64,000 nucleotides of DNA from Caldisericia bacterium (GTDB lineage Bacteria; Caldisericota; Caldisericia; UBA6126): assembly GCA_028700655.1 (NCBI GenBank), contig JAQVSG010000002.1:57844-121843 (forward strand), given 5' to 3'. Below, in pieces: positions 16,591-45,004 of the stretch (the stretch's first letter is position 1; the number at the start of each line of letters is the position of its first letter). Made by a program: the position numbers and the translations under genes. The notes under the pieces are model-generated. The model saw nothing but the letters and a program-made list of their open reading frames with translations. It had not been told where the DNA came from and made no database searches.

Positions 16591-17077
16591 AATCACAACC
16601 TTTTCTTTTTTGCTAGGCATTGGAATCATTCTCCATGTATTTGAGATCTATATTTCTGTTCCGATCGGCGGATATATGTTGAAACCAGGGATTTCAAACA
16701 TTGTGGTGCTACTTTGTATGTATCTTTTAAGTTTTCACGATGCTGTATTTCTTGCTTTTTCCAGAGGTCTCCTTTCTGGATTGTTTGAACCCTCCCTTAA
16801 TGGTATCACTATTTGTATCACGTTTGGCGGTATTGTTCTTAGTCTCATTGGAATGGGTTTTTTCCATATGCTTCGTTCACAACGCATTGTTACTATAAGT
16901 ATAGCAGGTGCAATTGCTCACAATATTGGTCAATTAATTGTTGTTCTTTTTTTTATTCCTGATAAATATTTACTATACTATCTACCATTACTGATAATTT
17001 CTGGTTTTTTTGGAGGCTTAATCACAGGATGGATTGTTACGTTATCATTGCCAAAGATAAAACAACCTGTGACATAA
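16568..17077 (+). CDS. small polytopic membrane protein (Gx-transporter / heptaprenyl-diphosphate-synthase-component-I-like)
   Basis: ~170 aa with 5 predicted TM helices. Proteins of this family often follow apbE. Start at ATG 16568; the alternative 16496 overlaps apbE more extensively. Confidence 0.45.
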   Translation: MQKITVRKITTFSFLLGIGIILHVFEIYISVPIGGYMLKPGISNIVVLLCMYLLSFHDAVFLAFSRGLLSGLFEPSLNGITICITFGGIVLSLIGMGFFHMLRSQRIVTISIAGAIAHNIGQLIVVLFFIPDKYLLYYLPLLIISGFFGGLITGWIVTLSLPKIKQPVT

Positions 17078-17099
17078 ATTTTATTAAATGGAGTGAATC

Positions 17100-18137
17100 A
17101 TGATATTTGGTCATTTTGGTAAGGATATTGCTATTGATCTTGGAACTGCAAACACACTTGTATATATTGCTGGTAAGGGGATCATGTTAAGAGAACCATC
17201 CATTGTAGCTGTACAACGTGATACTGGAGAGATTATAGCCATTGGGAACGAAGCAAAACGTATGGCAGGTCGAGTTCCTGAAGCTATTCAGATTATTCGT
17301 CCTTTAAAAGATGGTGTTATTGCCAATTTTGAAGTCACTCAAAAACTAATTGAATACCTGATCCAAAAAGTGGGTGCACGGAAAGGACTCTTGGGAAAAA
17401 TTCGCCCAAGGCTTGTCATAGGGATTCCATCTGGAATTACTGAAGTCGAAATGAGAGCCGTAATCGAAGCTGGCTATCAAGCAGGCGCAAAATATGTTGG
17501 CTTGGTACAAGAACCAATGGCGGCATCCTTAGGAGCAAACCTACCCGTCAATGAACCCACCGGAAATATGATTGTTGATATTGGTGGAGGTACGTGCGAA
17601 GTGGCTGTTGTTTCTCTCAACGGAATTGTTGCTAAAAACTCTATTCGTATTGCCGGTGATGAGATGAATGAAGCCATATTGCAATATTTAAAAAGACAAT
17701 ACAATCTTTTGGTAGGAATATATACCGCCGAGGAGATCAAAATTGAGATCGGTACTGCTTATCCCAGCGACGACATTACCTCCGCTGAAATTAAAGGAAG
17801 AGATTTAATCACAGGACTTCCTCGAACCGTCACAATCACCTCTGAAGAAACACGCATTGCACTCAATGATGTTCTAATCAGTATCATGGAAGCATTAAAG
17901 GCAACTCTTGAAATCACACCTCCCGATTTAGCAGCTGATATTATCGATCGAGGTATATTTTTGGCCGGTGGAGGATCTTTGATTCGCGGAATGGCACGAT
18001 ATATTTCGGAAGGAACAGGCATATTGGTTTCCAATGCTGAAAATCCTGTACTTTGCGTAGCCTTAGGTGCAGGGAAAATTGTTGAAAATCTTGAGAAACT
18101 TATGCCTTTGTTGCTTAAAGTTAAATATTATCGCTAA
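17100..18137 (+). CDS. mreB: rod-shape determining actin homologue MreB
   Basis: 345 aa. DLGTANTLVY phosphate-1 motif and VDIGGGTCEVAV phosphate-2 motif. Confidence 0.95.
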   Translation: MIFGHFGKDIAIDLGTANTLVYIAGKGIMLREPSIVAVQRDTGEIIAIGNEAKRMAGRVPEAIQIIRPLKDGVIANFEVTQKLIEYLIQKVGARKGLLGKIRPRLVIGIPSGITEVEMRAVIEAGYQAGAKYVGLVQEPMAASLGANLPVNEPTGNMIVDIGGGTCEVAVVSLNGIVAKNSIRIAGDEMNEAILQYLKRQYNLLVGIYTAEEIKIEIGTAYPSDDITSAEIKGRDLITGLPRTVTITSEETRIALNDVLISIMEALKATLEITPPDLAADIIDRGIFLAGGGSLIRGMARYISEGTGILVSNAENPVLCVALGAGKIVENLEKLMPLLLKVKYYR

Positions 18138-18140
18138 TCA

Positions 18141-18962
18141 ATGTCTACTACCAAAAAAAACTGGCTTTTCGTTTTCATAAGTTCTCTCCTTTTGCTTTTT
18201 TTTGGTTTCCTATGGGTTGGTAATTTTTCCCCTCCCATTGCTAAAGTAACTCATGCTATATCTAGAACAACACTTGTTTCTGTTGGTTCTGTTTTTTCAA
18301 AAGGAGCACAAAGCATACAATCCTTCTTTTCAAATATCCTCCAATATCCATCTCTCAACAGAGAATTGACCGAACTACGAGAAGAGAATAAAAGATTGCA
18401 CAGTGAGATTTTGATTCGGGATGCAATCCAACAAGAAAACAAAAAACTCTCTTCATTATTACGAATCCCAGAAGAGCATAACAATCTGTTTCCATGCCAC
18501 ATTTTAATGCGAGATCCCATGAATCCTATGAATTTTACTATCAATGCGGGGTCCTATCAAAACCTTTCAGAAAACACGGCTATTGTATGTCCTGTTTACG
18601 TATCCTCCACAAAAACTCATTTTCAGCTTATTGGGAGAACTGCTCGAGTAGGATTCAATGAATCGGATATTTTGTCCTTGTACGACGAATCATCACATAT
18701 TAGTATTCGAAACATTCGAAACAATGTCATAGGTACTTTATCCTTTGACAAAGATCAAAACATTCTTTTCGTGAAATTTTATCAAGAACAAGATTTTCAG
18801 GTAGGCGATGTTGTTGTTGTGAGTAACTATTCTTCTTTGCCCAATAATCTGATTGTAGGGATTGTCGATCAAATTGAACCCTCTTCTTCTATCCATTATA
18901 CAGCCATTGTTAAACCATCTATCGATATGAAAACACTCACAGAAGTTTTTGCATTTCAATGA
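18141..18962 (+). CDS. mreC: rod-shape determining protein MreC
   Basis: 273 aa. N-terminal TM helix, coiled-coil (LTELREENKRLHSE), and a C-terminal beta domain. Immediately follows mreB. Confidence 0.8.
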   Translation: MSTTKKNWLFVFISSLLLLFFGFLWVGNFSPPIAKVTHAISRTTLVSVGSVFSKGAQSIQSFFSNILQYPSLNRELTELREENKRLHSEILIRDAIQQENKKLSSLLRIPEEHNNLFPCHILMRDPMNPMNFTINAGSYQNLSENTAIVCPVYVSSTKTHFQLIGRTARVGFNESDILSLYDESSHISIRNIRNNVIGTLSFDKDQNILFVKFYQEQDFQVGDVVVVSNYSSLPNNLIVGIVDQIEPSSSIHYTAIVKPSIDMKTLTEVFAFQ

Positions 18963-19438
18963 TTTTAATTGTGTTTGGCATTTTGCAACTCGTTTGTGTA
19001 GTCACTGATCTTTTCTTTTTCCCCTTTCTTTTCCATACGTCCTTCTTTTGGATTGATTTATCTATTTTTGCATGCATTGGAGGGTTGTTCATTTTTGATA
19101 GCACCTCTCTTTTAATTTCTATTCCACTGCTTTTAATCAAGCTCAGTTATATTCCCACACCCTTGCTGTTTGTCTGTATTCTTTCTTATTTGGCCTTCAT
19201 TTTTCTATTTTTTCTTCTAAAAAATTTATTGCAAATCAATCCTTCGTTATTGTTTGTATCAGAACTAGTTTTTTTATTTCCTTTTTATCTATTCTTTCTT
19301 TCTCAATTCTTTGACATTGCTTTTTTTAAAACGCTGGGGATCCAGTGGTTGCTATTCTTTACATTCTTGTATCCTCTTCTACAATTATTTCGGAAATCAT
19401 ACGAGTCGAGTATCAGCAAACATAGAGTTTCCCCATGA
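18959..19438 (+). CDS. mreD: rod-shape determining protein MreD
   Basis: 159 aa, highly hydrophobic polytopic protein. 4-nt overlap with mreC and 4-nt overlap with the following PBP gene. Confidence 0.65.
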   Translation: MILIVFGILQLVCVVTDLFFFPFLFHTSFFWIDLSIFACIGGLFIFDSTSLLISIPLLLIKLSYIPTPLLFVCILSYLAFIFLFFLLKNLLQINPSLLFVSELVFLFPFYLFFLSQFFDIAFFKTLGIQWLLFFTFLYPLLQLFRKSYESSISKHRVSP

Positions 19439-21252
19439 AAAAGATGCCTGGATATTCTTTTCAGAAAAACCTAGACAAAGATATCCACCCGATCAAAATA
19501 ATTCTTTTTTTTGCATTTGTTCTGCTAGGATTTATATTCATTCTTTTTCGGATATTTCAGATTCAAGCTTTTCAACAAGAAAAATTTAGCAATCTGGCAA
19601 TCAACAATTATAGTCGTACTGTAACCCAAGAATGTCCTAGGGGAACCATATACGACCGAAATGGTAACGTATTGGCCAAAGATGTTCCCACCTATCATCT
19701 TTATGCATCTCCTCAAGAAATCCCCAATATTGAGTATCTTGCATCACTTCTTGAGACGTTTATTGGACTGTCTACAGAAAAAACAATCCCTACCATTGAG
19801 GAACTATACTCTTACTCAGAAGTCTTGCTAAAGGAAAATTTGACCTATGAAGAAAAAACCCGTATAGAAGAGAATAAATATAAACTCAAAGGCATTTTCA
19901 TTAAAGAAGGCTTTAAAAGATTTTACCCTTACAATGCATCTCTCTGTCATATTCTCGGATATACCGGTATGATCTCCAAAGAAGATTTGCAAAACCCCAA
20001 ACTCGTTCGTTTCAAACCCAATGAAAGAATTGGTCAAACTGGAATTGAACGATACTATGAGGATTTTTTGCACGGATTCCCTGGTATTACGAAACAAACC
20101 ATTAATGTGTTCGGATCTGTTCAAAAAGAAGATATTGAAAAAGAAGTTGTAAAGGGAGAAGATGTCTACTTAACAATTGATATCAAGCTGCAAAAAAAAG
20201 CCGAAGAAATCATATCTGATCATCGTGGATGTCTTATTTTAATGGATATTCCTACCGGGGAAATTCTTACCTGTGTTTCGAATCCAGGTTTCGATCCTAA
20301 CTACTTTTCCGGACCTAGACCAGTGGAAAAATGGAATCAATGGATTGAAAATCGATCTTTTTTTAATATAGCTAGTATGGGTCAATATCCTCCTGGTTCG
20401 ACATTGAAACCTCTCATTGCTTTGTATGGATTAACAGAAAATGTCATCACTCCCACGGAAAATCTGCTTTGCGAAGGCTCTCTCAACATTCCGGGACAAA
20501 AGGACAAATATCAATGCTGGGTATACCCATCATCTCATGGGTATATTTCCCTTTCAAAAGCGTTGCAAGTATCTTGTGATGTATATTTCTATAAGTTGGC
20601 AGATCGATTTAATATTGACCATTTTGTAGACTTTGCTGTTCAATATGGAGGACTTTCCAAAAAAACAGGGATTGACCTTACCTATGAAGAAAGCGGTTTT
20701 TTAGGGACACCCGAATGGAAAACAAAATTTAAAGGGATTCCATGGTATCGTGGAGATACTATGAATTTAGGAATCGGTCAGGGTTTTGTATCAGTAACAC
20801 CTCTTCAGATGACAAAATTATACGCGAAAATGGCTTCTTATGGAAAAGATGTAACCCCTCATCTTTTAAAACAAACCTCATCCCAAAAAGGTTTTTTTGA
20901 TCTACACCCACCTCCAGTCTCAAACAATTCGTATCAAGCCCAGATTTCTCCAAACTACTACAATATTGTTCTCGAGGGTTTGTACAAGACGACCGTATAT
21001 CCTGGAACAGCAATAGGATTACGGATACCCTCTATGAATATAGCTGCAAAAACCGGTACTGCTCTTGTTGAAGGACAAAGAGAAACACAACAACATGTAT
21101 GGATGGGAGCTATCTTTCCCTATGAGAATCCAAATCGAGTTGCCTTTCTAATGTTTGAAAATTCTTCTTTCGAATTTGCTAGTGAACTAGCTCCTTTTTT
21201 GAAAGATTTTATACTATACTATGATGAACTTTACACAACGGAGGTGAAATAA
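19435..21252 (+). CDS. mrdA: penicillin-binding protein 2 (class B transpeptidase)
   Basis: 605 aa. N-terminal TM helix and dimerisation domain. Transpeptidase motifs STLK, SCD (SxN-type) and KTGTA. Confidence 0.85.
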   Translation: MKKMPGYSFQKNLDKDIHPIKIILFFAFVLLGFIFILFRIFQIQAFQQEKFSNLAINNYSRTVTQECPRGTIYDRNGNVLAKDVPTYHLYASPQEIPNIEYLASLLETFIGLSTEKTIPTIEELYSYSEVLLKENLTYEEKTRIEENKYKLKGIFIKEGFKRFYPYNASLCHILGYTGMISKEDLQNPKLVRFKPNERIGQTGIERYYEDFLHGFPGITKQTINVFGSVQKEDIEKEVVKGEDVYLTIDIKLQKKAEEIISDHRGCLILMDIPTGEILTCVSNPGFDPNYFSGPRPVEKWNQWIENRSFFNIASMGQYPPGSTLKPLIALYGLTENVITPTENLLCEGSLNIPGQKDKYQCWVYPSSHGYISLSKALQVSCDVYFYKLADRFNIDHFVDFAVQYGGLSKKTGIDLTYEESGFLGTPEWKTKFKGIPWYRGDTMNLGIGQGFVSVTPLQMTKLYAKMASYGKDVTPHLLKQTSSQKGFFDLHPPPVSNNSYQAQISPNYYNIVLEGLYKTTVYPGTAIGLRIPSMNIAAKTGTALVEGQRETQQHVWMGAIFPYENPNRVAFLMFENSSFEFASELAPFLKDFILYYDELYTTEVK

Positions 21253-21969
21253 TTGCCTGCAAAAAGAACACCGGACTCAGTTGTAAGTTTTAAAGGTTTT
21301 TCTGAAGGAATTCTTATGTCTTTGATGCTCCACGATTTTGAATTTGACAAGGTCATACGCAAAGCTGTTTCGATCTATAAAAAGAAGCAAGACTTTTTTG
21401 GTGCCAATGTGGATCTTTATGCAACAGGCTTTGATAGAGAGTTAACTGACGACGAAGGGGGTATGGTGCGGAAAATGTTTGCATATTTGATTCAAAAACC
21501 TGTTCATACCTATCGAGACAACACCCCTAACTCTCTACAAACATCATCTCTTACTCAACCAACTGACACGTCTTTCTCTTCTCTTAATGCTTCGTCCGAT
21601 AATCCCGAGAAAGTCTCCTCTTTTTCAGATCCAAATGAATTTTTGGTCATTGGAAAAAATGTACGAGCAGGCGTGGTTGTTCAATCTCCCGGTAATATTA
21701 TTGTGTTTGGTGATATCCACTCAGGTGCAAAAGTTATTGCAGGGAAATCTTTGTATGTTTTCGGTTCAATCAAAGGTGAAGCTGGTTTTGGACAACATCC
21801 TGAATGCAAACAGGCGATCCTTGCTTGTAAAGAAATCAAAGCGATGCGGATTATCGCAGCAAATCAATCTCTTGACAATACAATTACAACCCTTGGAGAA
21901 ACTTCTATACCGGTATATATATATTTGAATGAAGGAGATGTGAGTATTGTAAAAATCACACACGATTAA
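21253..21969 (+). CDS. minC: septum site-determining protein MinC
   Basis: TTG start 6 nt after GGAGGTG. The C-terminal beta-helix region VVVQSPGNIIVFGDIHSGAKVIAGKSLYVFGSIKGEA is typical of MinC. Confidence 0.8.
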   Translation: MPAKRTPDSVVSFKGFSEGILMSLMLHDFEFDKVIRKAVSIYKKKQDFFGANVDLYATGFDRELTDDEGGMVRKMFAYLIQKPVHTYRDNTPNSLQTSSLTQPTDTSFSSLNASSDNPEKVSSFSDPNEFLVIGKNVRAGVVVQSPGNIIVFGDIHSGAKVIAGKSLYVFGSIKGEAGFGQHPECKQAILACKEIKAMRIIAANQSLDNTITTLGETSIPVYIYLNEGDVSIVKITHD

Positions 21970-21970
21970 T

Positions 21971-22768
21971 ATGGGACAAATCATTGTTTTCACCTCCGGT
22001 AAAGGGGGTGTTGGTAAATCCACTTTGGTCGCAAATATTGGTACAAGTATCGCTCTTGCAAAAAAAAGAGTTGTTGTTATTGACATGGATATTGGTTTGC
22101 GAAATCTAGACATGATTATTGGTCTCGAAAGAAAAGTCAAAGCCAACATTGTGGATCTTACAAAAAATTTATGCACATTGGACGATGCCTTGGTATATGA
22201 CAAGCGAACCCAAAATTATTTAGCCCTCATCGCTGCATCTCAAAGTGATCTAAAAAAAGATATCAATCTTTTCAAGTTTCACAAAGTTCTCAACGATTTA
22301 GAAGAGATTTTTGACTATATCATTATTGATTCTCCTGCAGGCATTGAAGAAGGTTTTAACAAATCGGTCTTTTTCGCAAAAAAAGCCATTGTTGTAGTCA
22401 ATCCAGAAATTTCCTCCATTCGAGATGCTGACAGAGTATTGGCTTTACTCGAAAACCACCGGATAAAAAAAGAAATCTTTTTACTCATTAACCGGTATCG
22501 TAAAGATTTAAGCCAGCGGAGCTACTATATTTCTGCAACTGAAATTATAGACCTTTTGCATGTTCCTTGTATTGGTATCATTTCTGAAGATGAACGAGTT
22601 TTGCGACAAAACAATTCGGGTGTACCCTTTGTATACCAAAGCAGCTTTTCGGTTTCAACGGAAGTTAAAGACGTAACCGATAAGATTGTCGGCAAAACGA
22701 AGTCTATTAAAAGAAATGCTCCCCCTTCCAAATCCATATGGGAAAAAATGAAAAAGAATTCTATATAA
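21971..22768 (+). CDS. minD: septum site-determining ATPase MinD
   Basis: 265 aa. Deviant Walker A GKGGVGKST. Full-length ParA/MinD fold with C-terminal amphipathic helix. Confidence 0.95.
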   Translation: MGQIIVFTSGKGGVGKSTLVANIGTSIALAKKRVVVIDMDIGLRNLDMIIGLERKVKANIVDLTKNLCTLDDALVYDKRTQNYLALIAASQSDLKKDINLFKFHKVLNDLEEIFDYIIIDSPAGIEEGFNKSVFFAKKAIVVVNPEISSIRDADRVLALLENHRIKKEIFLLINRYRKDLSQRSYYISATEIIDLLHVPCIGIISEDERVLRQNNSGVPFVYQSSFSVSTEVKDVTDKIVGKTKSIKRNAPPSKSIWEKMKKNSI

Positions 22769-22777
22769 GGAGAACAT

Positions 22778-23011
22778 ATGCCTTCCAAGTTAACAGACCG
22801 CTTAAAAAGAATTTTAGATGAAGATAGAAAAGTTTTATCCCCACAAAGTGAAAGAGACCTTCGGAAAAAATTAGCTGCAGTGTTAAGCCAATATTTTCCG
22901 ATTGATCAAAGAAAACTACACATTCGCGTCGTTAGAACCAATTATCAAACTTCCTACGAGTTAACGGCTGAAATGCCCATAAAAAAAAGTGAGTTAGACA
23001 AAGAAAAATGA
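22778..23011 (+). CDS. minE: cell division topological specificity factor MinE
   Basis: 77 aa. Position directly after minD. N-terminal basic/amphipathic segment. Sequence similarity to MinE is moderate, so the call rests partly on context. Confidence 0.6.
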   Translation: MPSKLTDRLKRILDEDRKVLSPQSERDLRKKLAAVLSQYFPIDQRKLHIRVVRTNYQTSYELTAEMPIKKSELDKEK

Positions 23012-24171
23012 AAATTCTTCAAACAGGTGATTTTTTCTTTGGTATTCAGAATATGGGGAAAAAAGAACCATACCCGTATGGTTTTTCTCAAATACACGAT
23101 TATGTTCGTTATTTATCTTTTATCTGCCAATATGCAATCGATCACCAAATAGATGTAGTGCTACTTTCCGGCAATCTTTTCTTTTCTTCTTTACCCAACG
23201 ACTTCCTCCAATCGGTTGTGCGAGAACGTATAAAAGACTTGGCCCAATCCAATATTCATTGCGTTGTATTGTCTGGAAAATATGATCAACCCTGCCAAGG
23301 TACTTCCTTTTTAGAGATGCTTCCTTCTCTATCTTTTCAGTATGTTCACACTATGCAGAAAGACGAATGTATTGTTTTAAAAAAAGACTCTGATGCTTTG
23401 CAAATTGCAGCACTCCCCTATAAAAAGATGAGCCCATCAGACGCAACTAGTCTTTCCTCTCGTTCAGAAATTGCAGAAAATCGGATTTCCAAACTGATTC
23501 CAAAGATCCAACCCGATCTATTTTCTGTCCTTTTTATGCAGGCCACTCTTTCATTCTTAGAACCCTTTTTTTTACTTCCCGATATACCTGCATTTCATGC
23601 CTCCTATTTACAAAGTCTTCCTTTTCAATATTTTGCCTTTGGTGGTCAACCCTTCAAAAAGATTGAGAAACTGTCGACATTGGAATCGTGGATTGGGTAC
23701 CCAGGTTCTTTGGGTGAATTTGAGTATGCAGACTCCACCATTGAAAGAGGCTTTCTTGTGTACGATTCTCTTTCTATTTCTGAACCTCCTCACTTCATTC
23801 CAAACCCTGAGCAAAGATTAACTGCTCTTATCCGCATTTCTGCCAATTCAGAAAAAGAAATTATGGAAAAACTGAACGAGGAGTTTCTTTTAAATGATTA
23901 CCGTGAACATATAACGCGAATTGTTTTACACACCGATGCAAATTTATCATTACCTTCAATTCATGGTAGTTTTGAAGAACATTGTTTTCATATTCACAGC
24001 ATTGAACAACAGGGTAAACAATTGCGTTATGTTGGCGATGAAGAAATACTGCCCATTCGTAGATATGTCGATTTCTATCTTGAAGAAAAGCGTTTACCAT
24101 TGCCGGAAATCTTGGAAGAAGAAGTGAATACTCATTGCTTATCCTACTTATATAACGAGTTGCCAGAATGA
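23008..24171 (+). CDS. SbcD/Mre11-like calcineurin-fold protein with all metal-binding motifs substituted (predicted inactive nuclease)
   Basis: 387 aa, collinear with E. coli SbcD. Motif I is MKILQTGDFFFG (SbcD: MRILHTSDWHLG). Motif II is LLSGNLFF (SbcD: VAGDVFD). Motif III is VVLSGKYD (SbcD: VLAGNHD). Later motifs are FAFGGQ and GYPGS instead of GH-containing motifs. The start overlaps the minE stop (ATGA). Confidence 0.75.
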   Translation: MKILQTGDFFFGIQNMGKKEPYPYGFSQIHDYVRYLSFICQYAIDHQIDVVLLSGNLFFSSLPNDFLQSVVRERIKDLAQSNIHCVVLSGKYDQPCQGTSFLEMLPSLSFQYVHTMQKDECIVLKKDSDALQIAALPYKKMSPSDATSLSSRSEIAENRISKLIPKIQPDLFSVLFMQATLSFLEPFFLLPDIPAFHASYLQSLPFQYFAFGGQPFKKIEKLSTLESWIGYPGSLGEFEYADSTIERGFLVYDSLSISEPPHFIPNPEQRLTALIRISANSEKEIMEKLNEEFLLNDYREHITRIVLHTDANLSLPSIHGSFEEHCFHIHSIEQQGKQLRYVGDEEILPIRRYVDFYLEEKRLPLPEILEEEVNTHCLSYLYNELPE

Positions 24172-27140
24172 TTCCACTCAAACTCACAATCCACAATTTT
24201 TTATCCTACAAAGGAACCCACCAACTGGATTTAGAAAACACCCGCTCTTTGATCATTACAGGTGATAATGGAGCTGGTAAAAGCAGTATCTTGGATGCAA
24301 TTTTATTCGCACTCTTTGGGTATACAAGAATTTCTAACAACCAACAAAGTTCTGCCAATATTATTCACTTTGAAGAAACAATGGCGTTTTCAGAATTTAC
24401 ATTTTTACTTCATGATGCCTGTTTTAGAATCAAACGAAGTACAAACCCTATACATTCTTTAGAAATCAAGGAGAGAAAACGTACCAATTGGAAAAATATA
24501 ACGAAAGAATCCGATCAAGAAACGCAAACCTTTATCGAAAAAGCACTTCATATTAATTTAAATAGTCTCTTCATGACCACCATAATGAGCTCTTCATTCT
24601 ATCACCAAAAAGATTTCTTAGACTATTCAGAAGAAGAAAGATATCAACGATTGGCTGGTTTTTTAGGACTATCCCTATTTCAAAATGCCTACGATCACAC
24701 CCAGAAAGATCTCTTTCAATATTCTGTACGAAAACAGGTTCTGGAAGAATACATCCATCAAAACAAAAATAAGTTCACGCAAAAAAAAGCTTTGCAAAAA
24801 ATTTTGGATGAAGAAATCGAAAAAAAGAATCAGCTTGAAATCGACCTTACCAAAATAAAAGACTCCATTGAATGTTTAGAAATCGAAATTGTTACAATCC
24901 GTCAACAATTGGATAATAAATCCCATCTTATGGATCAAATTCATCAACTTCGAAACTTTCAAAACGATCAGCGAAAAGAAAAATCTAAAATTCTTGAGGC
25001 ATTGAATCAACTACAACAATCTATCTCTTTACAACATGAAATTGAAAACGGTTACAAACAACTTTTAGACCTAATTCAACGAAACAAAATTCTCAATGAA
25101 AACCTGGAGCAAAGACAACGCATCGAACTGCAGATGAACGAGATTCAGAATTGCATTGAACAAGAAGAAATGGAATTAAAAGTCAAACGGAATGAACTTG
25201 AACAAAAAGAAATGGAGTATTCTCAAGAAAAAAGTTTGCTTCCCGATCTAAACTTTAAGATGCATGATATTCAATCAAAACTTAAAGAAATGGGAAAACA
25301 GAGATATCAGATTGAAAAATTAGAACAAGAAAAGAACGAGATACAAAACCAAATTTCTTCTTTAAACGAAAATACGGGGATGCTAAAACAGGAAAGAGTT
25401 GCAATACTAGAAACATACAGTACTATATCAAAACAGATTTCTGATCACGAACAAGTCATTCAGAAGGAACTTAGTACTAAAAAGAAACTGCAAACCATTC
25501 GAGAAAACAAAGAAAAAGTAAAACTCCTGCAAAGCAACATCGAAATTGAATACAATAAAAAAAAGAACCTAGAATCCCAAAATGAAAAGTTTAGTGAAAT
25601 GGCCATTCAGTTAAAAGAAAAAATCCGTTTTTTGGAACTACCAAAAACAACGGAAAATCGTTGCCCACTTTGCGGTACACCTTTAAGCAAAGACAAAGAA
25701 GCGGATATTCTTCTAAATTACCGTAGAGACCTTGAAATGAGAGAAACAACCCTAGAAAAGAACGCAAACACAATTCAACGAATCACCACAAAAATTGAGT
25801 CGCTACAAAGCGAGATTCTTATTCTTTCTGCTGATTTTGACCAAGAGGAGGAATTACAGAACTTGTATATGAAAATTCAAGAATGTAAGTCCACGATAGG
25901 CAAAATTACAGAAAATCACTATCGAGCGAAGCTGCAAGAGTCCAAAATTGAAGAAGAAATGAACAAGGTAACCCACAAGATCGCCAACTTGAAAAGTCGA
26001 TTTAAAACAATCGACAAGCAGTATGTTGAGGCTATGTTTGTTGTATCCAACCAATCGGTTCATGAAAACAGTTTGAGCGAACTACACTTACAGATTTCTA
26101 GTGCTCTTGAAGCAGATCAAAAGCTGCCGTCCGTCACGAAACAACTCATTGATATTAAACGAAGAATTGAAACAAAAAATTATGCCACCGACCAATGGAA
26201 GAAAGTAAACGATTTAAAGCTCAAGTTTTTTGCTATCCATTATAGTGCTCAAGAACACGAAAACATAAAAAATAAAATCAACCAGCTTAAGTATTTTGAA
26301 ACCGAAAAGAGAATTATGGATGAAAAGCTAAATGAAAAAGGGAGAATCTTAAATCAACTGAATGACATTGAAGATAAACTTGAAGAATTAGATACTGATA
26401 TTTCTATACTCGTCGAAAAAATAAAGAATATTGCGTATCAAAAAAACGATCTTGAGGAGGCGGAAACAAATGTAGAAAAATTCACACATCAAAAAGATTC
26501 TTGTACTCAAGAAAAAGAAGATGTAATGGTGTCGATTGCAAAACATGAAAGAGACATGGAAATTATTTTTGAAGTACAAAAGGAATTTGAAAAATCCCAA
26601 AAAGAATTGGATGATCTTCATACAAAAACTCAAATTGTCACTTTTTGTCAACAAGTTTTTTCTGATCAAAACCTTCCCACCTATATCCTGTACAGAGTTT
26701 TGCCTCTATTAGAAAGAGATGTCAATAGAATTCTGAGAAGTATTTCTAAAGAAACCTTAACCGTCTATATTTCTGTTAATAAAGATTCCATGTATGGCCA
26801 ACAGAAGATTTCTGTTTCCATTTCCAACATTAACAATACGATTGATTTCCCTTACTTAAGTCAAGGAGAACGATTTTGTATCCATATAGCGTTTCGCCTT
26901 GCTTTGTCTCGTTTATTACAGCAAAGCAAAGTGATAGAATCTCCATTTTTATGTATTGATAATGACTTTGGATCTTTAGATTTTTCTAGCAAACATCAAA
27001 TTATGTATACCCTGTTAAGAATTCAGGAACATTTCAATAAAGTCTTCTTGATATCTCATAATAACGAGTTTCAAAATTCATTTGATCAACACTTATTGGT
27101 TGAAAAAAAGCTAAAAGCATCAAATTTTTCATTTATTTAA
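24168..27140 (+). CDS. SbcC/Rad50-like SMC-family ATPase with zinc hook, degenerate signature and Walker B
   Basis: 990 aa. Walker A GDNGAGKSS. Long coiled-coil. Central CPLCG zinc hook. C-terminal head with LSQGE (SbcC: LSGGE), Walker B FLCIDN-DFGSLD (SbcC: LFLDE-GFGTLD, i.e. E to N), and H-loop LISHN. The start overlaps the upstream stop (ATGA). Confidence 0.8.
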   Translation: MIPLKLTIHNFLSYKGTHQLDLENTRSLIITGDNGAGKSSILDAILFALFGYTRISNNQQSSANIIHFEETMAFSEFTFLLHDACFRIKRSTNPIHSLEIKERKRTNWKNITKESDQETQTFIEKALHINLNSLFMTTIMSSSFYHQKDFLDYSEEERYQRLAGFLGLSLFQNAYDHTQKDLFQYSVRKQVLEEYIHQNKNKFTQKKALQKILDEEIEKKNQLEIDLTKIKDSIECLEIEIVTIRQQLDNKSHLMDQIHQLRNFQNDQRKEKSKILEALNQLQQSISLQHEIENGYKQLLDLIQRNKILNENLEQRQRIELQMNEIQNCIEQEEMELKVKRNELEQKEMEYSQEKSLLPDLNFKMHDIQSKLKEMGKQRYQIEKLEQEKNEIQNQISSLNENTGMLKQERVAILETYSTISKQISDHEQVIQKELSTKKKLQTIRENKEKVKLLQSNIEIEYNKKKNLESQNEKFSEMAIQLKEKIRFLELPKTTENRCPLCGTPLSKDKEADILLNYRRDLEMRETTLEKNANTIQRITTKIESLQSEILILSADFDQEEELQNLYMKIQECKSTIGKITENHYRAKLQESKIEEEMNKVTHKIANLKSRFKTIDKQYVEAMFVVSNQSVHENSLSELHLQISSALEADQKLPSVTKQLIDIKRRIETKNYATDQWKKVNDLKLKFFAIHYSAQEHENIKNKINQLKYFETEKRIMDEKLNEKGRILNQLNDIEDKLEELDTDISILVEKIKNIAYQKNDLEEAETNVEKFTHQKDSCTQEKEDVMVSIAKHERDMEIIFEVQKEFEKSQKELDDLHTKTQIVTFCQQVFSDQNLPTYILYRVLPLLERDVNRILRSISKETLTVYISVNKDSMYGQQKISVSISNINNTIDFPYLSQGERFCIHIAFRLALSRLLQQSKVIESPFLCIDNDFGSLDFSSKHQIMYTLLRIQEHFNKVFLISHNNEFQNSFDQHLLVEKKLKASNFSFI

Positions 27141-27141
27141 A

Positions 27142-27169
27142 TTGACAAAACCGGAATGTTTTTTTTAAT
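27142..27169 (+). promoter_or_regulatory. putative sigma-70-type promoter for the kor operon (TTGACA-16nt-TTTAAT)
   Basis: TTGACA at 27142-27147 and TTTAAT at 27164-27169, about 40 nt upstream of the korD start. Confidence 0.35.
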
Positions 27170-27207
27170 GATGAACGTAATTAATGCTTTGAAAGCAGGT
27201 AAATATC

Positions 27208-27408
27208 TTGAAAAAAGTAAACGATGTTGTAATTAACGAGTTGCGTTGTAAGCGTTGCAGTATCTGTGTACAGATCTGCCCGAAAAAAGTTTTTGCGATC
27301 GATTCCACGGGATATGTCTTCGTCGAAGACTTACCATCGTGTATTGGATGTCTTTCCTGTCAAGAACATTGTCCGGATTTAGCTGTTGAGGTAATTTTCA
27401 ATGAGTAA
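27208..27408 (+). CDS. korD: 2-oxoacid:ferredoxin oxidoreductase delta subunit (2x[4Fe-4S] ferredoxin)
   Basis: 66 aa with CKRCSICVQICP and CIGCLSCQEHCP. TTG start per the ORF track. Confidence 0.8.
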   Translation: MKKVNDVVINELRCKRCSICVQICPKKVFAIDSTGYVFVEDLPSCIGCLSCQEHCPDLAVEVIFNE

Positions 27409-28525
27409 ACAAAGAGAAATTTTACAAGGTGCCGAAGCATGCGTTAAGGGTGCTATTAAAGCAGGTATTGGCTTTTTTGCGGGATATCCCATTACGCCTT
27501 CTACAGAAATAGCAGAATTGTTATCCACGGAGTTAGCAAAAGAAGAAAAGATCTTCATTCAAATGGAAGATGAAATTGCAAGCATCACGGCAATTATTGG
27601 AGCTTCTTTAGCGGGAAAGAAATCCATGACAGCAACATCAGGCCCAGGCTTCTCATTAATGCAAGAAGGGCTTGGTTATGCAACCATCGCCGAAGTACCT
27701 ATTGTTGTTGTGAATGTACAACGAGGTGGACCTTCCACAGGTTTACCAACAAAAGTATCTCAAGGAGATGTAATGCAATCAAAATGGGGCACGCATGGAG
27801 ATCACCCCGTGATTGTATTAAGCCCCTGTTCTGTACAAGAGCTTTACGAAATGACTATTCAAGCATTTAACCTAGCTGAAAAATACCGTAACCCTGTCGT
27901 TATTTTAACTACAGAAACCATTGTCCACATGAGAGAAAAGGTTGAGATTGATCCCTTTGAAACCGTGGATATTTTTAATCGGATTCTTCCTTCGATTAAC
28001 CCCGGAGACACATATCTACCCTACGGTAAATTTTCTGATGATGTTCCTATTATGGGTAACATCGGAGATGGTTACGGAACCAGTGTAACTGGATTGGTAC
28101 ATATGGAAAATGGATTCCAGAGTGCAGACTATGAGGTGGCAGATCGCCTTGTCCGTAGAATACATCGGAAAATCGAAAAGCATACCTCTGATCTCTTTGA
28201 CATAGAAATCTTGAATCCCGATGCTGAAACGATGTTTATTTCCTACGGAGTAGCCAGCCGCACAGTAAAATCATTGATCTATACGAACCACCCTGAAATT
28301 GGCTTGGTTCGACCAAAAACCCTGTTCCCGATTGATCCAATAAAAATTCAACAAGCCACCAAAAATGCGAAACGTATTGTTGTTTCAGAGTTAAATCTTG
28401 GGCAATATTACTTTGAAATGCAACGAATCTTGCCTCATAAAAAAGTGCATCTTATAGAGAAAATTGGCGGAGAATTGATATCACCAAATGAAATGCTCAG
28501 AAGAATCGAGGAACTCCATGATTAA
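27401..28525 (+). CDS. korA: 2-oxoacid:ferredoxin oxidoreductase alpha subunit
   Basis: 374 aa of the KorA/PorA/VorA family (…GYPITPSTEI…). Overlaps korD by 8 nt. Confidence 0.85.
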   Translation: MSKQREILQGAEACVKGAIKAGIGFFAGYPITPSTEIAELLSTELAKEEKIFIQMEDEIASITAIIGASLAGKKSMTATSGPGFSLMQEGLGYATIAEVPIVVVNVQRGGPSTGLPTKVSQGDVMQSKWGTHGDHPVIVLSPCSVQELYEMTIQAFNLAEKYRNPVVILTTETIVHMREKVEIDPFETVDIFNRILPSINPGDTYLPYGKFSDDVPIMGNIGDGYGTSVTGLVHMENGFQSADYEVADRLVRRIHRKIEKHTSDLFDIEILNPDAETMFISYGVASRTVKSLIYTNHPEIGLVRPKTLFPIDPIKIQQATKNAKRIVVSELNLGQYYFEMQRILPHKKVHLIEKIGGELISPNEMLRRIEELHD

Positions 28526-29333
28526 AGGCGAGAAATTTCTAAATCCTGATCGTCTTCCTACAATATGGTGCCCTGGATGTGGCAATGGTATTGTATTACA
28601 CGCTGCTATGGAAACTCTTGAAGAGATGGGTTGTACAAAAAAAGATGTGATATGTATCTCTGGCATAGGATGTTCCTCCCGATCTGGCACATATACACAA
28701 TTTGACCAAGTCCATACATTGCATGGTCGTGCCATTCCATTTGCTACTGCCATTAAACTTGCTAGGCCTGATAAAAAAGTGATCGTTTTCACAGGCGATG
28801 GAGATGCAAGTGCAATAGGAGGTAATCACCTAATTCATGCAGCAAGACGAAACATCGATATTACTGTCATTGTATTCAACAATAGCATATATGGCATGAC
28901 GGGGGGTCAAGTGTCTCCCTTGACAGGTTCTTATAAAAAAGGAACCACAGCCCGTTTTGGAAATTATGAAAACCGATTTGATCTTGTACATCTTGCTATT
29001 GGTGCCGGAGCAACATATGTAGCAAGAACTGGCACTTACTACTACCGTCACATGAAGAAATACATGGAAAAAGGGTTTTCAAGAAAAGGGTTTTCCTTAC
29101 TTGAAGTGGTAACACAATGTCCTGTTTACTATGGACGTTTAAATGGTACGCCTGATCCTTACAAAATGATGATGGAACAAAAAGACATGCTCGTTTTACA
29201 ATCTAAGTATGACGCCCTATCGGTGGAGGATCAAGCATCCCACTTGCCCATGGGTGAATTTATTGAAGACAATCAGCAATTATCCTATATTGAAAAACGC
29301 GAGCAACTCTTAAAAAAGGTGAGAGAATCATGA
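28518..29333 (+). CDS. korB: 2-oxoacid:ferredoxin oxidoreductase beta subunit (TPP-binding)
   Basis: Start at ATG 28518 (GAGGA RBS, 8-nt overlap with the korA stop). TPP motif FTGDGDASAIGGNHLIHAARRN and N-terminal WCPGCGNG. Confidence 0.85.
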   Translation: MIKGEKFLNPDRLPTIWCPGCGNGIVLHAAMETLEEMGCTKKDVICISGIGCSSRSGTYTQFDQVHTLHGRAIPFATAIKLARPDKKVIVFTGDGDASAIGGNHLIHAARRNIDITVIVFNNSIYGMTGGQVSPLTGSYKKGTTARFGNYENRFDLVHLAIGAGATYVARTGTYYYRHMKKYMEKGFSRKGFSLLEVVTQCPVYYGRLNGTPDPYKMMMEQKDMLVLQSKYDALSVEDQASHLPMGEFIEDNQQLSYIEKREQLLKKVRES

Positions 29334-29890
29334 GAAAAGAAATCCGATATTCAGGTTCTGGTGGCCAAGGCCTAATTACAGCTACTCGTGTTATTGCAAG
29401 AGCTGCACTTAGAGAAAACAAAAATGCTTTACAATCGCAGTCTTATGGAGCTGAAGCACGGGGTGGAGCAACAAAAAGTGAAGTCATTATTAGCGATAAA
29501 GAAATATTTTTCCCCGAAGTTGAAATTCCTGATATTCTATTGCTAATGACACAAGAAGCCTATACAAAATATGGGACTTCTATTAAGGAAAATGGGATTC
29601 GTATTTTGGATAGTTTTTTTATTCCTGACTACGAGCCTATTTCCAAGGCTGTTACTCACACCGAGCCATTTACTGCTATTTGCGAGGAAGAATTTGGGAC
29701 ACGTATCGTGGCTAACATGATGGCTACAGGGTATATGTTGGGCATAACAAAGGTAATCGAAATTTCAACATTTACACAAGCAATTGGGGATTTTTTCTCT
29801 GATAATAAGTTAACTCTCAATATAAAAGCAGCTAAATTTGGATATGAAATGACAAAAAAAGGAAAAGAAGAGGAAACAGATCAGGACTAA
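29330..29890 (+). CDS. korG: 2-oxoacid:ferredoxin oxidoreductase gamma subunit
   Basis: 186 aa. GSGGQG motif of Por/Kor gamma subunits. 4-nt overlap with korB. Substrate specificity (2-oxoglutarate vs pyruvate/ketoisovalerate) cannot be assigned from sequence alone. Confidence 0.75.
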   Translation: MRKEIRYSGSGGQGLITATRVIARAALRENKNALQSQSYGAEARGGATKSEVIISDKEIFFPEVEIPDILLLMTQEAYTKYGTSIKENGIRILDSFFIPDYEPISKAVTHTEPFTAICEEEFGTRIVANMMATGYMLGITKVIEISTFTQAIGDFFSDNKLTLNIKAAKFGYEMTKKGKEEETDQD

Positions 29891-29997
29891 AAAACTGAAT
29901 TGCCAGTATATCTTTCTTCTTCATTTTACAGCTTTTTTTGATCACATTTAAATGTCCGTAAACACAACATAACGGACATATCATCCTTCTCAATGGT

Positions 29998-30660
29998 TTA
30001 TTTATGACCGTAAATTAGCTTTTGGCTTACACTTTGGATTTCTCTTCGAAGATTGTAATCATTTTGTATCATTTTATAAATGCACACAATATCAAATCGA
30101 GCATCATGGTACCCGATTGAGGAGCTCTGAAACAACTCTTTGCATGTTTTCAAAGCGTCTTCTTCGTCAATTTTTAAGAACTGCATAGTTTCCGATACTT
30201 TTGGCCATTTATAGTCATCATACAAGCCTGGTAAACGGATTATGTTTGTGTAATACTTCATTGTGCACCAATAAGGAATCGCTTTCTGTTGAAGAAAAAA
30301 ATGTCTCATAAAGCGAATATCAAAACCTGCATTGTGAGCAATAGATAAAAGATACTTTGTAGAAAAATCGTGCTGAATTTCATGGACATAGAATGAGTAG
30401 GGCTTTGCTCCAAGTTGAATTAATTTTGCTTTCGTTAATCCGTGTATTTTTATTGCAGCTTCAGGAACTTCCTCTTGAACTTCAAAATAAAAATTTTTAG
30501 CGTTGGTAATTTGTAAATTCTGGTTGAGGAGAATATACGCCAATTGGATAGGTTTATCTTTTGGCGGATGCAAACCTGTTGTTTCGAAATCAAACAATGC
30601 ATAATAAGAGGGTTCAAATAGTCCAATAACAGAATCATCCACCAAACGTTTATTTTTCAC
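29998..30660 (-). CDS. stand-alone DEDDh 3'-5' exonuclease (DnaQ/epsilon-like)
   Basis: 220 aa. Exo I FDFETTGL, Exo II HNAGFDIRFM, Exo III YHDARFD (H-x4-D). No polymerase or helicase domain attached. Confidence 0.8.
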   Translation of the reverse strand: MKNKRLVDDSVIGLFEPSYYALFDFETTGLHPPKDKPIQLAYILLNQNLQITNAKNFYFEVQEEVPEAAIKIHGLTKAKLIQLGAKPYSFYVHEIQHDFSTKYLLSIAHNAGFDIRFMRHFFLQQKAIPYWCTMKYYTNIIRLPGLYDDYKWPKVSETMQFLKIDEEDALKTCKELFQSSSIGYHDARFDIVCIYKMIQNDYNLRREIQSVSQKLIYGHK

Positions 30661-30743: not shown

Positions 30744-32096
30744 TTAAATGATTTCAACCAACTCTTCTAGTGTTATTAATTGTACATTCTTTCTGTTTCC
30801 GACAATTCTTCGCAGATCAGGTGTAAATCCTTTTTTGCTGATAAAATAATAATGCTTTTGTCGAAGCTTGGACTTAAAAGGAACAACCTGAGTGCTTTCT
30901 ACAAAGTTTCTGTACATTTGTTTTGTGTAGAGTGTTTCGTCTATAAAAATATCACCAAATATCGCCTTCTTATAGTCGGTACTCATAATATCAACACTAT
31001 GTGTTTCATAGTCCCACCACGGAGAAGTTAATAATGGCACAAAGGGGTCTGTAAGACTAGATAACCACTGCTTTGATATTTCTACAACAATATGATCAAT
31101 AAAGGTGTTGTAATCTTCTTTAAGATGTTTCACGATAATATCTGGGTTCAACATATGAAGTGCTTCTGGATCGAAATAGACGTAACGGAACCAGAAATAC
31201 AAAAACATATCGCTAATCATGTACTTACTCTTTCGAGTGACTTTAGGATTTGTACTATTTCCCGGAACCACACGACCAATGAGTTTCATTTCGCGTAGAC
31301 GGTCAACAAAGGATGTTAAATTATGGGTTTGTAGGTTGAGTTGATGGGAAAGATCGCCGATTTTAAGTTCATGATATGCCAATACTTGTAAAACAGAATA
31401 ATAAGTGGATGGTTCGTGAAATTCGTAGCGTAATACGGAACAAGGATCATAATAGGGGAGTCTAGTTGGAGAAATAAAGTTCTCCTTTACGTTGTCAAAC
31501 AAGTCAAGATTAGGGTCAATCCATTCCATATACCTAGCAACACCACCAGTAATACCATAAAGTTCAATCTGTCGCATAGGATCCATGTCTTTATAGTAAT
31601 CGCGAAACTCTTTAAATGACAAGGGTTTTAATTCAATTTGATGAAAACGATCTTGGGTAAAACCTTCAAATCGGAAACTTATAAAATTGGCTTGAGGATA
31701 GGAGGAAGTAATAAAAATAGTAAAAGGTGCATTAACAGAATGCCTCTCCATAGGAATCAAAATGTCCTGAGTAATTTTGTATAAGAAATGAAAATCATCC
31801 CAAACAACAATGAAGTTTTCTTTTTTTGCTAAGCTGTAAAGATTGGTAAGAAAATCTTTCCAAGTAATATCGGATTCAAAGTCTGGATATTGTCTTCGCA
31901 CAACACGGATGAAACGTCGTATTTGTACAGGAGGATGTTGGGATAAACATTTAAAATAGAAACCCTTCTTGTCTTTCAAGAAATTACGGACTAAGTAGGT
32001 TTTTCCACCACCTGCTGTACCGTGTAATAAGATCATCTTGTAATTATGATCTTCATACACCTTCTGAAGGTAATCGAACACTTTCTTGTGAATCAT
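30744..32096 (-). CDS. COG1672-type AAA+ ATPase (Arch_ATPase/ATPase_2 domain) with C-terminal DUF234-like domain
   Basis: 450 aa. Walker A LHGTAGGGKTYL. Walker B IVVWDDFHF. C-terminal ~100 aa (…SPWWDYETHSVDIMSTDYKKAIFGDIFIDETLY…) matches the DUF234 module that habitually follows this ATPase. Confidence 0.75.
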   Translation of the reverse strand: MIHKKVFDYLQKVYEDHNYKMILLHGTAGGGKTYLVRNFLKDKKGFYFKCLSQHPPVQIRRFIRVVRRQYPDFESDITWKDFLTNLYSLAKKENFIVVWDDFHFLYKITQDILIPMERHSVNAPFTIFITSSYPQANFISFRFEGFTQDRFHQIELKPLSFKEFRDYYKDMDPMRQIELYGITGGVARYMEWIDPNLDLFDNVKENFISPTRLPYYDPCSVLRYEFHEPSTYYSVLQVLAYHELKIGDLSHQLNLQTHNLTSFVDRLREMKLIGRVVPGNSTNPKVTRKSKYMISDMFLYFWFRYVYFDPEALHMLNPDIIVKHLKEDYNTFIDHIVVEISKQWLSSLTDPFVPLLTSPWWDYETHSVDIMSTDYKKAIFGDIFIDETLYTKQMYRNFVESTQVVPFKSKLRQKHYYFISKKGFTPDLRRIVGNRKNVQLITLEELVEII

Positions 32097-39474: not shown

Positions 39475-40104
39475 TCAATAGGAACGTTTGCTTAAGATAT
39501 CTTTAATTTTCATTAACCTTATTGTAGTAGAGCGTTCATTTTCTTCAAGCTTTGAAGTTATATATTTTATCGTTTCTTCAAGTTCGGGAACTAAAACATA
39601 CTCCAATGCATTCACTCGACGTTTTGTCATTTCCACAATTTTGGCAACTTCATAGATAGAGAATTCTAACTCAGCAAGTTTCAATAGGTCGTCTAAGATA
39701 CTATCAAATTCGCGAAGAACTATATCAAAAGCAGGGTTTAAACCGCACTGATGAAACGCCGGCTTTGAAGGATGTGTGTGGTGAATATGAAATTCTGGAA
39801 GCACAATATTCATAATATTTTTTTGAGACATAGTAAGTTCAAATTCAGCGGGATAGTCCGATACAATATTACGCATTTCTTCATCTGTAACGGTAGTTCG
39901 TAGCACTAAAAATTGTTCCAATATTTGCGGTAGTCGATCTCCCACTTTTTGTTCTTGTTTTTCGAATTCCTTGGCGAGTTCAACAAGTTCTCTGGCAAGA
40001 GCTTCAAGTTTATCTTTTAATAGCTTATGACCTCGTTTCGCTGTTTTATGTCTTTTCCGAATCTCCAACAGCTTCATACGAGTAGGACTTACTCGTTGTG
40101 CCAC
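39475..40104 (-). CDS. atpD: V/A-type ATPase subunit D
   Basis: 209 aa coiled-coil central-stalk protein. Last gene of the V-ATPase operon. Confidence 0.85.
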   Translation of the reverse strand: MAQRVSPTRMKLLEIRKRHKTAKRGHKLLKDKLEALARELVELAKEFEKQEQKVGDRLPQILEQFLVLRTTVTDEEMRNIVSDYPAEFELTMSQKNIMNIVLPEFHIHHTHPSKPAFHQCGLNPAFDIVLREFDSILDDLLKLAELEFSIYEVAKIVEMTKRRVNALEYVLVPELEETIKYITSKLEENERSTTIRLMKIKDILSKRSY

Positions 40105-45003: not shown

Positions 45004-45004
45004 C

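Follow-up and report, generated by a model that had tools for sequence, protein, structure and literature searches.

An SbcD–SbcC pair that has lost nearly all of its catalytic residues is retained under purifying selection in one clade of Caldisericia

What becomes of a nuclease complex when both of its subunits lose the residues for catalysis and the genes are nevertheless kept? The question is raised by a 64-kb stretch of DNA from an uncultured Caldisericia bacterium (the window), part of a 125.8-kb contig of a metagenome-assembled genome (MAG), in which an SbcD-like and an SbcC-like gene follow minE; the pair is known only from MAGs. Mre11–Rad50/SbcCD complexes are universal, and it is chiefly engineered point mutants that have until now set their non-nucleolytic roles in tethering and signaling apart from cutting. 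In the literature on Caldisericum SbcC, on linkage of SbcCD to minCDE and on inactive Mre11 paralogues we found no description of the pair or of a natural SbcCD dead in both subunits. We report here that the pair is the in-place orthologue of active sbcD–sbcC, degenerated in one monophyletic clade. The genes in question are as follows.

22778–23011, plus strand: minE (Pfam MinE, 2.7e-10), the stop codon of which overlaps the SbcD-like start in an ATGA
23008–24171, plus strand: SbcD-like pseudo-nuclease of 387 amino acids (MDD4028256.1, annotated by NCBI as "hypothetical protein")
24168–27140, plus strand: SbcC/Rad50-like protein of 990 amino acids (MDD4028257.1, annotated by NCBI as "SMC family ATPase"), the ATG of which overlaps the SbcD-like stop, again as ATGA

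Both overlaps, the first of them on the minE stop, had been described in an earlier note on this DNA and are seen in the junction sequence. The same note had assigned the proteins to the SbcD and SbcC families, and profile and structure matches bear this out. The SbcD-like protein comprises a nuclease-fold domain (residues 1–255), a capping domain (256–345) and a C-terminal helix-loop-helix (346–387). It has no match in Pfam, where Metallophos recognizes the canonical SbcD of locus L001 at 54 bits, and its match to the NCBIfam model TIGR00619 sbcd (3e-16, 60 bits) lies under the cut-off of 77.65. The AlphaFold2 model (predicted local distance difference test, pLDDT, 79; predicted template modeling score, pTM, 0.73) finds Mre11/SbcD structures in all of its top 50 PDB matches (3qg5_C, E-value 5e-16; TM 0.6–0.76), and the match takes in the capping domain and the C-terminal helix-loop-helix.

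The SbcC-like protein has an N-terminal head lobe (residues 1–190), an antiparallel coiled coil (191–830) with a zinc hook in the middle, and a C-terminal head lobe (831–990). It matches AAA_23 (6.7e-19) and, over its full length, the Rad50 model PRK03918 (1e-26). The match to Rad50_zn_hook is weak (E-value 0.0012), the canonical SbcC of L001 likewise falling under the cut-off; Pfam SbcC_Walker_B, which matches the L001 protein, does not match the one in the window. The structure model shows an ABC head and an antiparallel coiled coil of about 640 residues with CPLC at its apex, and its best structural match at the level of the head is Rad50. In the fold search with the full-length model the global TM scores are meaningless owing to the long coil, leaving the head-level matches alone informative.

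The motifs of the SbcD-like protein were read by alignment to canonical SbcDs, including that of L001, the closest canonical relative.

23029–23037, plus strand: motif I remnant D8-F9-F10 (canonical D-x-H)
23170–23175, plus strand: motif II remnant G55-N56 (canonical G-D)
23275–23286, plus strand: motif III remnant G90-K-Y-D93 (canonical G-N-H-D)
23536–23541, plus strand: M177-Q178, just ahead of which the motif IV His is lost in a five-residue deletion
23641–23652, plus strand: remnant of motifs V and VI, G212-G-Q-P215 (canonical G-H-x-H, GHIH)

Across motifs I–VI the canonical metal-ligand and catalytic residues D, H, D, N, H, H, H, H (DHDNHHHH) read DFNKYQGE, one of the eight being kept; every one of the five His ligands has been lost, and so has the motif II Asp. 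In a census of relatives drawn from a search of 5.8 billion clusters and an exhaustive hidden Markov model search of 1.84 billion representatives, all eight residues are present in 254 of 267 SbcD sequences, and one or fewer is found only in seven sequences, which belong to the clade of the degenerate ("dead") pair. The former active site is surrounded by new residues that are invariant in this clade (GIQN.GK, FSQ, SGN.FFSS.P and YDQ). The earlier reading of motif I as DFF, of motif II as GN and of motif III as GKYD agrees with these alignments, its manual alignment not having been shifted, and GGQ does stand in place of GH; the "GS" taken for a further His motif is instead part of a conserved PGSLG segment present in canonical SbcDs as well. 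In the most degenerate SbcD-like member (L004:8829–10001, GCA_964422555.1) even the motif I Asp is absent (G-S-L-F), as is the Gly of motif III (NQYD), and its SbcC partner reads LSTAE and IDDD. As this member shows, drift at the former active sites has gone on inside the dead clade.

The SbcC-like protein was compared with its family in the same manner, and the conservation of its coil was set against the structure model.

24261–24287, plus strand: Walker A GDNGAGKSS, intact and invariant in the clade (alignment)
24588–24596, plus strand: Q-loop remnant S141-S-S143 (canonical M-Q-G), followed by a two-residue insertion (family alignment)
25008–25106, plus strand: interruption of the N-arm of the coil, residues 281–313, including LQHEIENGYKQL, opposite the C-arm interruption (conservation and model)
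25662–25673, plus strand: zinc-hook CPLC, C499–C502, invariant, midway along the helices 168–830 (alignment and model)
26229–26321, plus strand: interruption of the C-arm of the coil, residues 688–718, with the conserved block HYSAQEH...MDEKL at 691–721 (conservation and model)
26856–26870, plus strand: degenerate ABC signature L-S-Q-G-E (canonical SGG; alignment)
26946–26981, plus strand: Walker B FLCID-N, the catalytic Glu being replaced by Asn932, then an intact D-loop FGSLD (alignment)
27054–27059, plus strand: H-loop S963-H964, intact (alignment)

A phmmer alignment to Rad50 of P. furiosus places LSQGER on LSGGER and FLCIDND on LLILDEP with the H-loop His kept, in agreement with the earlier note on the LSQGE signature and on the change of the Walker-B Glu to Asn; loss of the Q-loop Gln is an addition to that list. 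The set K, Q, SGG, DE, D and H is complete in 115 of 126 SbcC relatives. The remainder consists of nine dead-clade sequences with losses at multiple sites, one sequence with a single signature substitution and one that is truncated. Among the nine, the Q-loop residue is S or N, the signature SQG, SSG or STA, and Walker B DN, DQ, DE or DD; the Q-loop Gln is missing from every member, and the Walker A Lys, Walker-B Asp, D-loop Asp, H-loop His and hook CxxC are invariant. Because the residue alignments and both censuses agree, the observation of catalytic loss is correct and not a matter of chance.

The two interruptions are the most conserved stretches of the coil and the sole non-helical places in the AlphaFold2 model of it (pLDDT <50). 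Their sequences, QHEIENGYKQL... and HYSAQEH..KNKINQLKYFETEK..MDEKL, face each other some 100 residues up the antiparallel coil from the heads. In canonical Caldisericia SbcC, too, many of these positions do not vary, and the interruption looks like a class-wide conserved "joint" that is older than the catalytic loss; possibly it is a docking site.

Comparison of orthologous loci shows where the degenerate pair came from. Canonical SbcCD is encoded with full gene order at L001, L045, L046 and L047, and at a partial locus, L044. The four complete loci have full canonical motif sets and SbcDs that match Metallophos, and SbcC matches SbcC_Walker_B in all five. The degenerate pair occurs in six lineages (the window, L041/L042, L005, L043, L002/L003 and L004); a scan of genome contigs with the SbcC alignment, in which one of the two patterns was a generic Walker A, contributed at least one extra Caldisericota locus, L005. 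Every Caldisericia lineage retrieved has the common order ApbE, heptaprenyl-diphosphate-synthase component I (HpreDiP-I), mreBCD, PBP2, minCDE, sbcD, sbcC, (ferredoxin) korABC, and the dead genes have the same lengths as their canonical orthologues. Given the identical synteny, the dead pair is the orthologue of active sbcD–sbcC in its original place. In neighbor-joining trees of the markers minCDE plus korA, of SbcD and of SbcC, the degenerate lineages each time form one clade on a long stem branch. The family is small: the exhaustive profile search returned the dead SbcD type as three clusters at 50% identity, below which the scores fall from 319 to 125 bits, the latter being canonical Caldisericia SbcD. 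An assembly or sequencing artefact was rejected on the strength of identical frames and substitutions in independent NCBI, JGI, ENA and Logan assemblies.

Common to all six dead lineages are the residue losses in SbcD, the loss at the Q-loop and a substitution of the first signature Gly. The codon at the Walker-B catalytic position differs among them, being GAA (Glu) in L002, GAC (Asp) in L004, CAA or CAG (Gln) in L005 and L043, and AAT (Asn) in the window and L041. The stem branch thus saw the loss of the nuclease together with that of part of the ATPase site, and the catalytic Glu went later and more than once, a pattern expected if hydrolysis is no longer selected. The earlier note had placed the substitution in the window in the class of engineered hydrolysis-trap mutants; in the clade the position drifts among N, Q, E and D rather than being fixed on a trap residue.

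The dead genes are not pseudogenes. Full-length open reading frames (ORFs; 378–390 and 988–992 amino acids) are intact in all six lineages, among which synonymous divergence is saturated. Most pairs were therefore set aside for the ratio of nonsynonymous to synonymous substitutions (dN/dS), their dS being >1.2 or undefined, and the values below come from the least-saturated pair, L005–L043. Otherwise rate ratios against neighboring genes were used: the fold changes compare the dead with the canonical clade after normalization to minCDE plus korA distances.

SbcC N-terminal head: dN/dS 0.04; rate change 4.2x
SbcC coiled coil: dN/dS 0.035; rate change 1.2x
SbcC hook: rate change 1.0x
SbcC C-terminal head: dN/dS 0.10; rate change 5.7x
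SbcD nuclease-fold domain: dN/dS 0.09; rate change 2.7x
SbcD capping domain: dN/dS 0.05; rate change 1.1x
SbcD C-terminus: dN/dS 0.24; rate change of the helix-loop-helix 2.9x
Comparison genes for dN/dS: korA 0.036, mreC 0.089
Control genes for rate change: mreD 0.9x, pbp2 1.0x

Purifying selection thus acts on both genes, with constraint redistributed among the domains. In all 15 dead–dead pairs the coil is 10–21 points higher in identity than the heads, and in all six canonical pairs it is 16–27 points lower. A "hyper-conserved coiled coil" was considered and dropped, since after marker normalization the coil evolves 1.2x as in active relatives and it is the heads that have sped up. In the fast-evolving N-terminal head of SbcC the invariant residues cluster at the P-loop. 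The pair combines a fold from an enzyme family, lost catalytic residues and retention under purifying selection, the three marks of a pseudoenzyme.

That the pair is a nuclease appears very unlikely from its residues. With a little more than even confidence we favor an ATP-binding, non-cutting DNA clamp, tether or sensor derived from SbcCD, a proposal made because the constrained parts are the nucleotide loops, the hooked coil and the capping domain, and because Mre11–Rad50 and Lamassu offer precedents. In the ancestor of the clade, SbcD lost its di-metal site and SbcC its Q-loop Gln and first signature Gly, after which the Walker-B Glu drifted, so that it is E, D, Q or N among the members. 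The genes were kept, probably as a pseudoenzyme complex still in need of the P-loop, D-loop and H-loop, the hook-bearing coil of about 640 residues and the SbcD capping domain. Retention of the three loops implies nucleotide binding, and an assembly of two SbcD-like and two SbcC-like subunits would bind ATP and close its heads; with slow or zero hydrolysis and no nuclease, the result would be a long-lived DNA clamp, tether or sensor. Complex formation, ATP binding, clamping or tethering of DNA and such a cellular role are suggested by the conserved residues and by homology. The proposed clamp would be the counterpart of the ATP-bound "closed" state of Mre11–Rad50, the carrier of its non-nucleolytic activities. 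This closed state favors DNA binding (PMC5435944), and in eukaryotes activation of ATM by the Mre11–Rad50–Nbs1 complex (MRN) depends on binding of ATP to Rad50 and on the coiled coils, and can do without hydrolysis, hook and Mre11 nuclease (PMC3642328).

Several points weigh against the clamp. Replacement of the signature Gly by Gln together with the Q-loop loss could impair the ATP-driven engagement of the heads. The Walker-B Glu is kept in P0014/L002 and is an Asp in P0015/L004, and some members of the clade may still hydrolyze ATP. In the SbcD-like protein D8, N56 and D93 are still present and could hold one metal ion. The SbcD helix-loop-helix is among the accelerated segments (2.9x); in canonical complexes this element clasps the SbcC coiled coil at its base, and the interface of the two subunits may be altered in the dead clade. 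No second sbcCD was found within the window, the region checked for one, and another copy or a partner effector elsewhere in the genome is possible. Finally, the nuclease-free clamp is a proposal read from sequence and homology.

A more elaborate version of the clamp, which we regard as unlikely, is a constitutively ATP-locked, zinc-hook-linked DNA tether that would hold or organize sister chromosomes or replication termini in concert with Min-directed division, the coil interruption serving as the docking site for a partner. If true, this would be a complex of the Mre11–Rad50 type used purely as architecture, and a natural proof of a catalysis-independent function of SbcCD.

The same neighborhood had led the earlier note to propose that the pair was recruited to the Min/Mre machinery, as an SMC-like structure for division-site or chromosome organization that is hence co-translated with MinE. 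Of that proposal the non-nuclease character is very likely correct, and the pair is indeed retained, by selection; we consider the recruitment itself quite improbable. In its favor are the 4-bp overlap with minE, present at every dead-clade locus, and a gene order conserved across the class. A role of SbcCD at converging replication forks, where it helps to complete replication (Wendel et al. 2018 as cited in PMC12663957; review, PMC7326373), also makes a link between termination and division conceivable. Linkage and overlap are, however, also found with fully canonical SbcCD, sbcD overlapping minE by 4 bp in L001 and by 8 bp in L046, and are not tied to inactivation. Since canonical lineages have the same order and overlap, the min linkage and the coupling are older than the inactivation and cannot support a new function. 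The absence of rodA, pointed out in the earlier note, is likewise general: no SEDS/RodA domain occurs among the scanned window ORFs of at least 150 amino acids, and rodA is absent after min in canonical loci too. In sbcCD loci outside Caldisericia there are no min or mre genes nearby.

Overlaps are moreover usual in this region. Window positions 1232–29890 (plus strand) form a 29-kb unbroken co-directional string of 28 ORFs, in which 18 of the 27 junctions overlap (seven of these by exactly 4 bp) and 26 are of 25 bp or less; the widest gap, 67 bp, lies directly after the dead sbcC. The array begins with two unknowns, a TrxR-like oxidoreductase, ValRS, a FolC/Mur-ligase-like protein and a zinc-ribbon protein, continues with RnfC/D/G/E/A/B-like proteins, a 963-amino-acid surface protein, ApbE and HpreDiP-I, and ends with mreBCD, PBP2, minCDE, the dead sbcD and sbcC, and korDABC. 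Genes as unrelated as those for ValRS, Rnf, ApbE and kor are part of it. A promoter and terminator scan of 15000–30500 gave counts equal to the shuffled expectation, which says nothing for or against an internal promoter. The Min/Mre neighborhood is an inherited gene order that gives no evidence for a new role, and a division-specific role is unsupported.

At L043 the dead pair is intact beside a minC and a minD broken by frameshifts, which also speaks against recruitment if the frameshifts are real rather than assembly errors. In this locus (L043:7090–8605; GCA_040767255.1, JAXGOZ010000001.1) two frameshifts interrupt minC, and minD has a single one, caused by a 1-nt deletion near 8093 in a run of A5. 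The minC and minD pieces are 79–91% identical to those of L005, and minE, the dead sbcD and sbcC and all other neighbors are intact. These frameshifts are either assembly errors or a recent inactivation of minCD; in the second case they would argue against an obligatory Min partnership.

The pair could instead be a sensor or regulatory pseudoenzyme that does no more than recognize DNA ends or hairpins for a catalytic partner encoded elsewhere, be it a second SbcCD of canonical type, some other nuclease or an effector of the Lamassu kind. The LmuB/LmuC proteins of Lamassu, offshoots of SbcC and of the SbcD C-terminal domain that signal to a separate effector (PMC12663957), are a precedent, the capping domain and coiled coil are still constrained, and the SbcC-like protein matches the PADLOC LmuB models (2.5e-17). 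The canonical SbcC of L001 matches LmuB just as strongly (9.6e-20), and these matches therefore reflect general homology. A reading as a defense system was rejected in the same way, the PADLOC matches to LmuB, DndD and PbeC being equally strong for the canonical orthologue and so uninformative; the SbcD-like protein has no match in PADLOC. No gene for an LmuA-type effector is present at the locus, no effector gene was gained, gene content being the same in dead and canonical loci, and the setting is a conserved housekeeping array rather than a defense island. With no second sbcCD inside the 64-kb window either, we hold a regulatory role of this kind to be quite improbable as well.

Another possibility, to which we give little credence, is an enzyme with unconventional chemistry, in which a new site for catalysis or ligand binding would be built from the remaining D8, N56, D93, Y92 and Q94 and the SbcC-like protein would act as a slow ATP timer. 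The new invariant residues ring the former active site, the nuclease-fold domain is under purifying selection (omega 0.09), and the Walker-B position is Glu or Asp in two members. Against this, none of the five His ligands is left and the motif II Asp is missing, with L004 lacking the motif I Asp too, and the Q-loop Gln is absent in all members; no metallophosphoesterase is known to us to work with a site of this kind. Lastly, a functionless relic heading for loss after SbcCD became dispensable would explain why both subunits lost catalytic residues, why the catalytic domains evolve 2–6x faster and why the former catalytic Glu is E, D, Q or N, yet it is barely credible beside full-length ORFs intact across six synonymous-saturated lineages, dN/dS of 0.04–0.24 in every region, a coil, hook and capping domain whose relative rates match those of active relatives, and an invariant Walker A, D-loop, H-loop and CxxC.

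The surroundings of the pair can be described briefly. Upstream, mreB, mreC, mreD, PBP2, minC, minD and minE occupy 17100–23011 (plus strand), and downstream a small ferredoxin ORF is followed by the alpha, beta and gamma subunits of a 2-oxoacid:ferredoxin oxidoreductase. The following features were also observed.

12702–15593, plus strand: the 963-amino-acid protein, with a faint match to the IgGFc_binding domain alone (1.3e-6); most Caldisericia loci, whether of the dead or the canonical type, have a counterpart upstream of ApbE (L002, L041, L046)
27208–27408, plus strand: 66-amino-acid ORF with a TTG start between the dead sbcC and korA, the 4Fe-4S ferredoxin (delta) subunit
29998–30660, minus strand: RNase_T/DnaQ-family 3'-5' exonuclease of 220 amino acids, converging on the end of the kor genes
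30744–32096, minus strand: AAA_14/DUF234 ATPase of 450 amino acids, converging with the exonuclease on the same end
39475–47535, minus strand: V/A-type ATPase operon with subunits D, B, A, C/AC39-like, c and I

The ferredoxin ORF is called in L001, L003, L046 and L047 and uncalled in L002, L004, L041 and L043, where its absence is probably an omission of annotation. The exonuclease and ATPase pair also follows the locus in L041 and L043, and canonical-SbcCD loci have other downstream genes (tRNA methyltransferases, CorA, a peptidase). A V/A-type ATPase operon of the same type lies near the L046 locus.

The dead clade constitutes a natural case of separation of function, in which both enzymatic activities have been abandoned and the coil, hook, capping domain and nucleotide loops remain under unchanged or strong constraint. 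This pattern marks the parts of the machine that matter for catalysis-independent function, and sister lineages supply matched active and dead orthologues for biochemistry. The family is tiny, confined to uncultured bacteria, and its function is a proposal from sequence. There is also a lesson for annotation in a pair filed as a "hypothetical protein" and an "SMC family ATPase", and translational coupling inside a conserved gene string is no proof of functional recruitment.

Among known systems, the likeness to Arcadin-4 (Rkd4) is conceptual only. Arcadin-4 is a Rad50-like protein of the crenactin "arcade" cluster, encoded beside an actin-family cytoskeletal gene, and here too an SbcC-like protein with a Rad50/SMC-like coiled coil is encoded near mreB. 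Arcadin-4 has no Mre11-like partner, however, and the adjacency to mreB in Caldisericia is ancestral and common to active SbcCD; the match to the Arcadin-4 model NF053563 (E-value 3.8e-8) is confined to the P-loop region, residues 5–51. The SMC–kleisin complexes (Smc–ScpAB, MukBEF, JetABC) differ in that the dead pair has a zinc hook and no hinge, and its partner subunit is an Mre11 fold and not a kleisin; matches of the SbcC-like protein to SMC models are limited to the P-loop or the coil.

Close known systems also include bacterial SbcCD and Mre11–Rad50 (E. coli, T. maritima, P. furiosus). The dead pair has the same sbcD–sbcC order with overlapping stop and start, the same Mre11 fold with capping domain and helix-loop-helix, and the same ABC-type head, long antiparallel coil and CxxC hook. 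It differs in the replacement of seven of eight nuclease residues and of the Q-loop Gln, first signature Gly and Walker-B Glu; it fails Pfam Metallophos and SbcC_Walker_B, falls under NCBIfam cut-offs, and its heads evolve 4–6x faster.

Lamassu has been proposed to derive from SbcCD by a split of the SbcD nuclease domain from the SbcC-binding C-terminal domain, which became LmuC (PMC12663957). Like the dead pair, LmuB/LmuC, an antiphage sensor of DNA ends, gave up the nuclease chemistry of SbcD and kept an SbcC-like coiled-coil ATPase together with the SbcC-binding part of SbcD. Unlike it, Lamassu has dispensed with the nuclease domain, has shorter coils and an ATPase that still works (the K40A mutant is inactive), and includes the effector LmuA (PMC12663957), whereas the dead pair retains the whole Mre11 fold and a full-length coil, has degenerate ATPase motifs, and sits without an effector in a housekeeping locus. 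The engineered alleles (Rad50 Walker-B E-to-Q, signature mutants, Mre11 H-to-N/S) are changed at the same positions as the dead pair, and with them an ATP-bound closed complex binds and tethers DNA and signals without hydrolysis or nuclease (PMC3642328, PMC5435944). Those alleles are single changes made in the laboratory, whereas the dead pair carries many natural changes in both subunits, maintained by selection across a clade.

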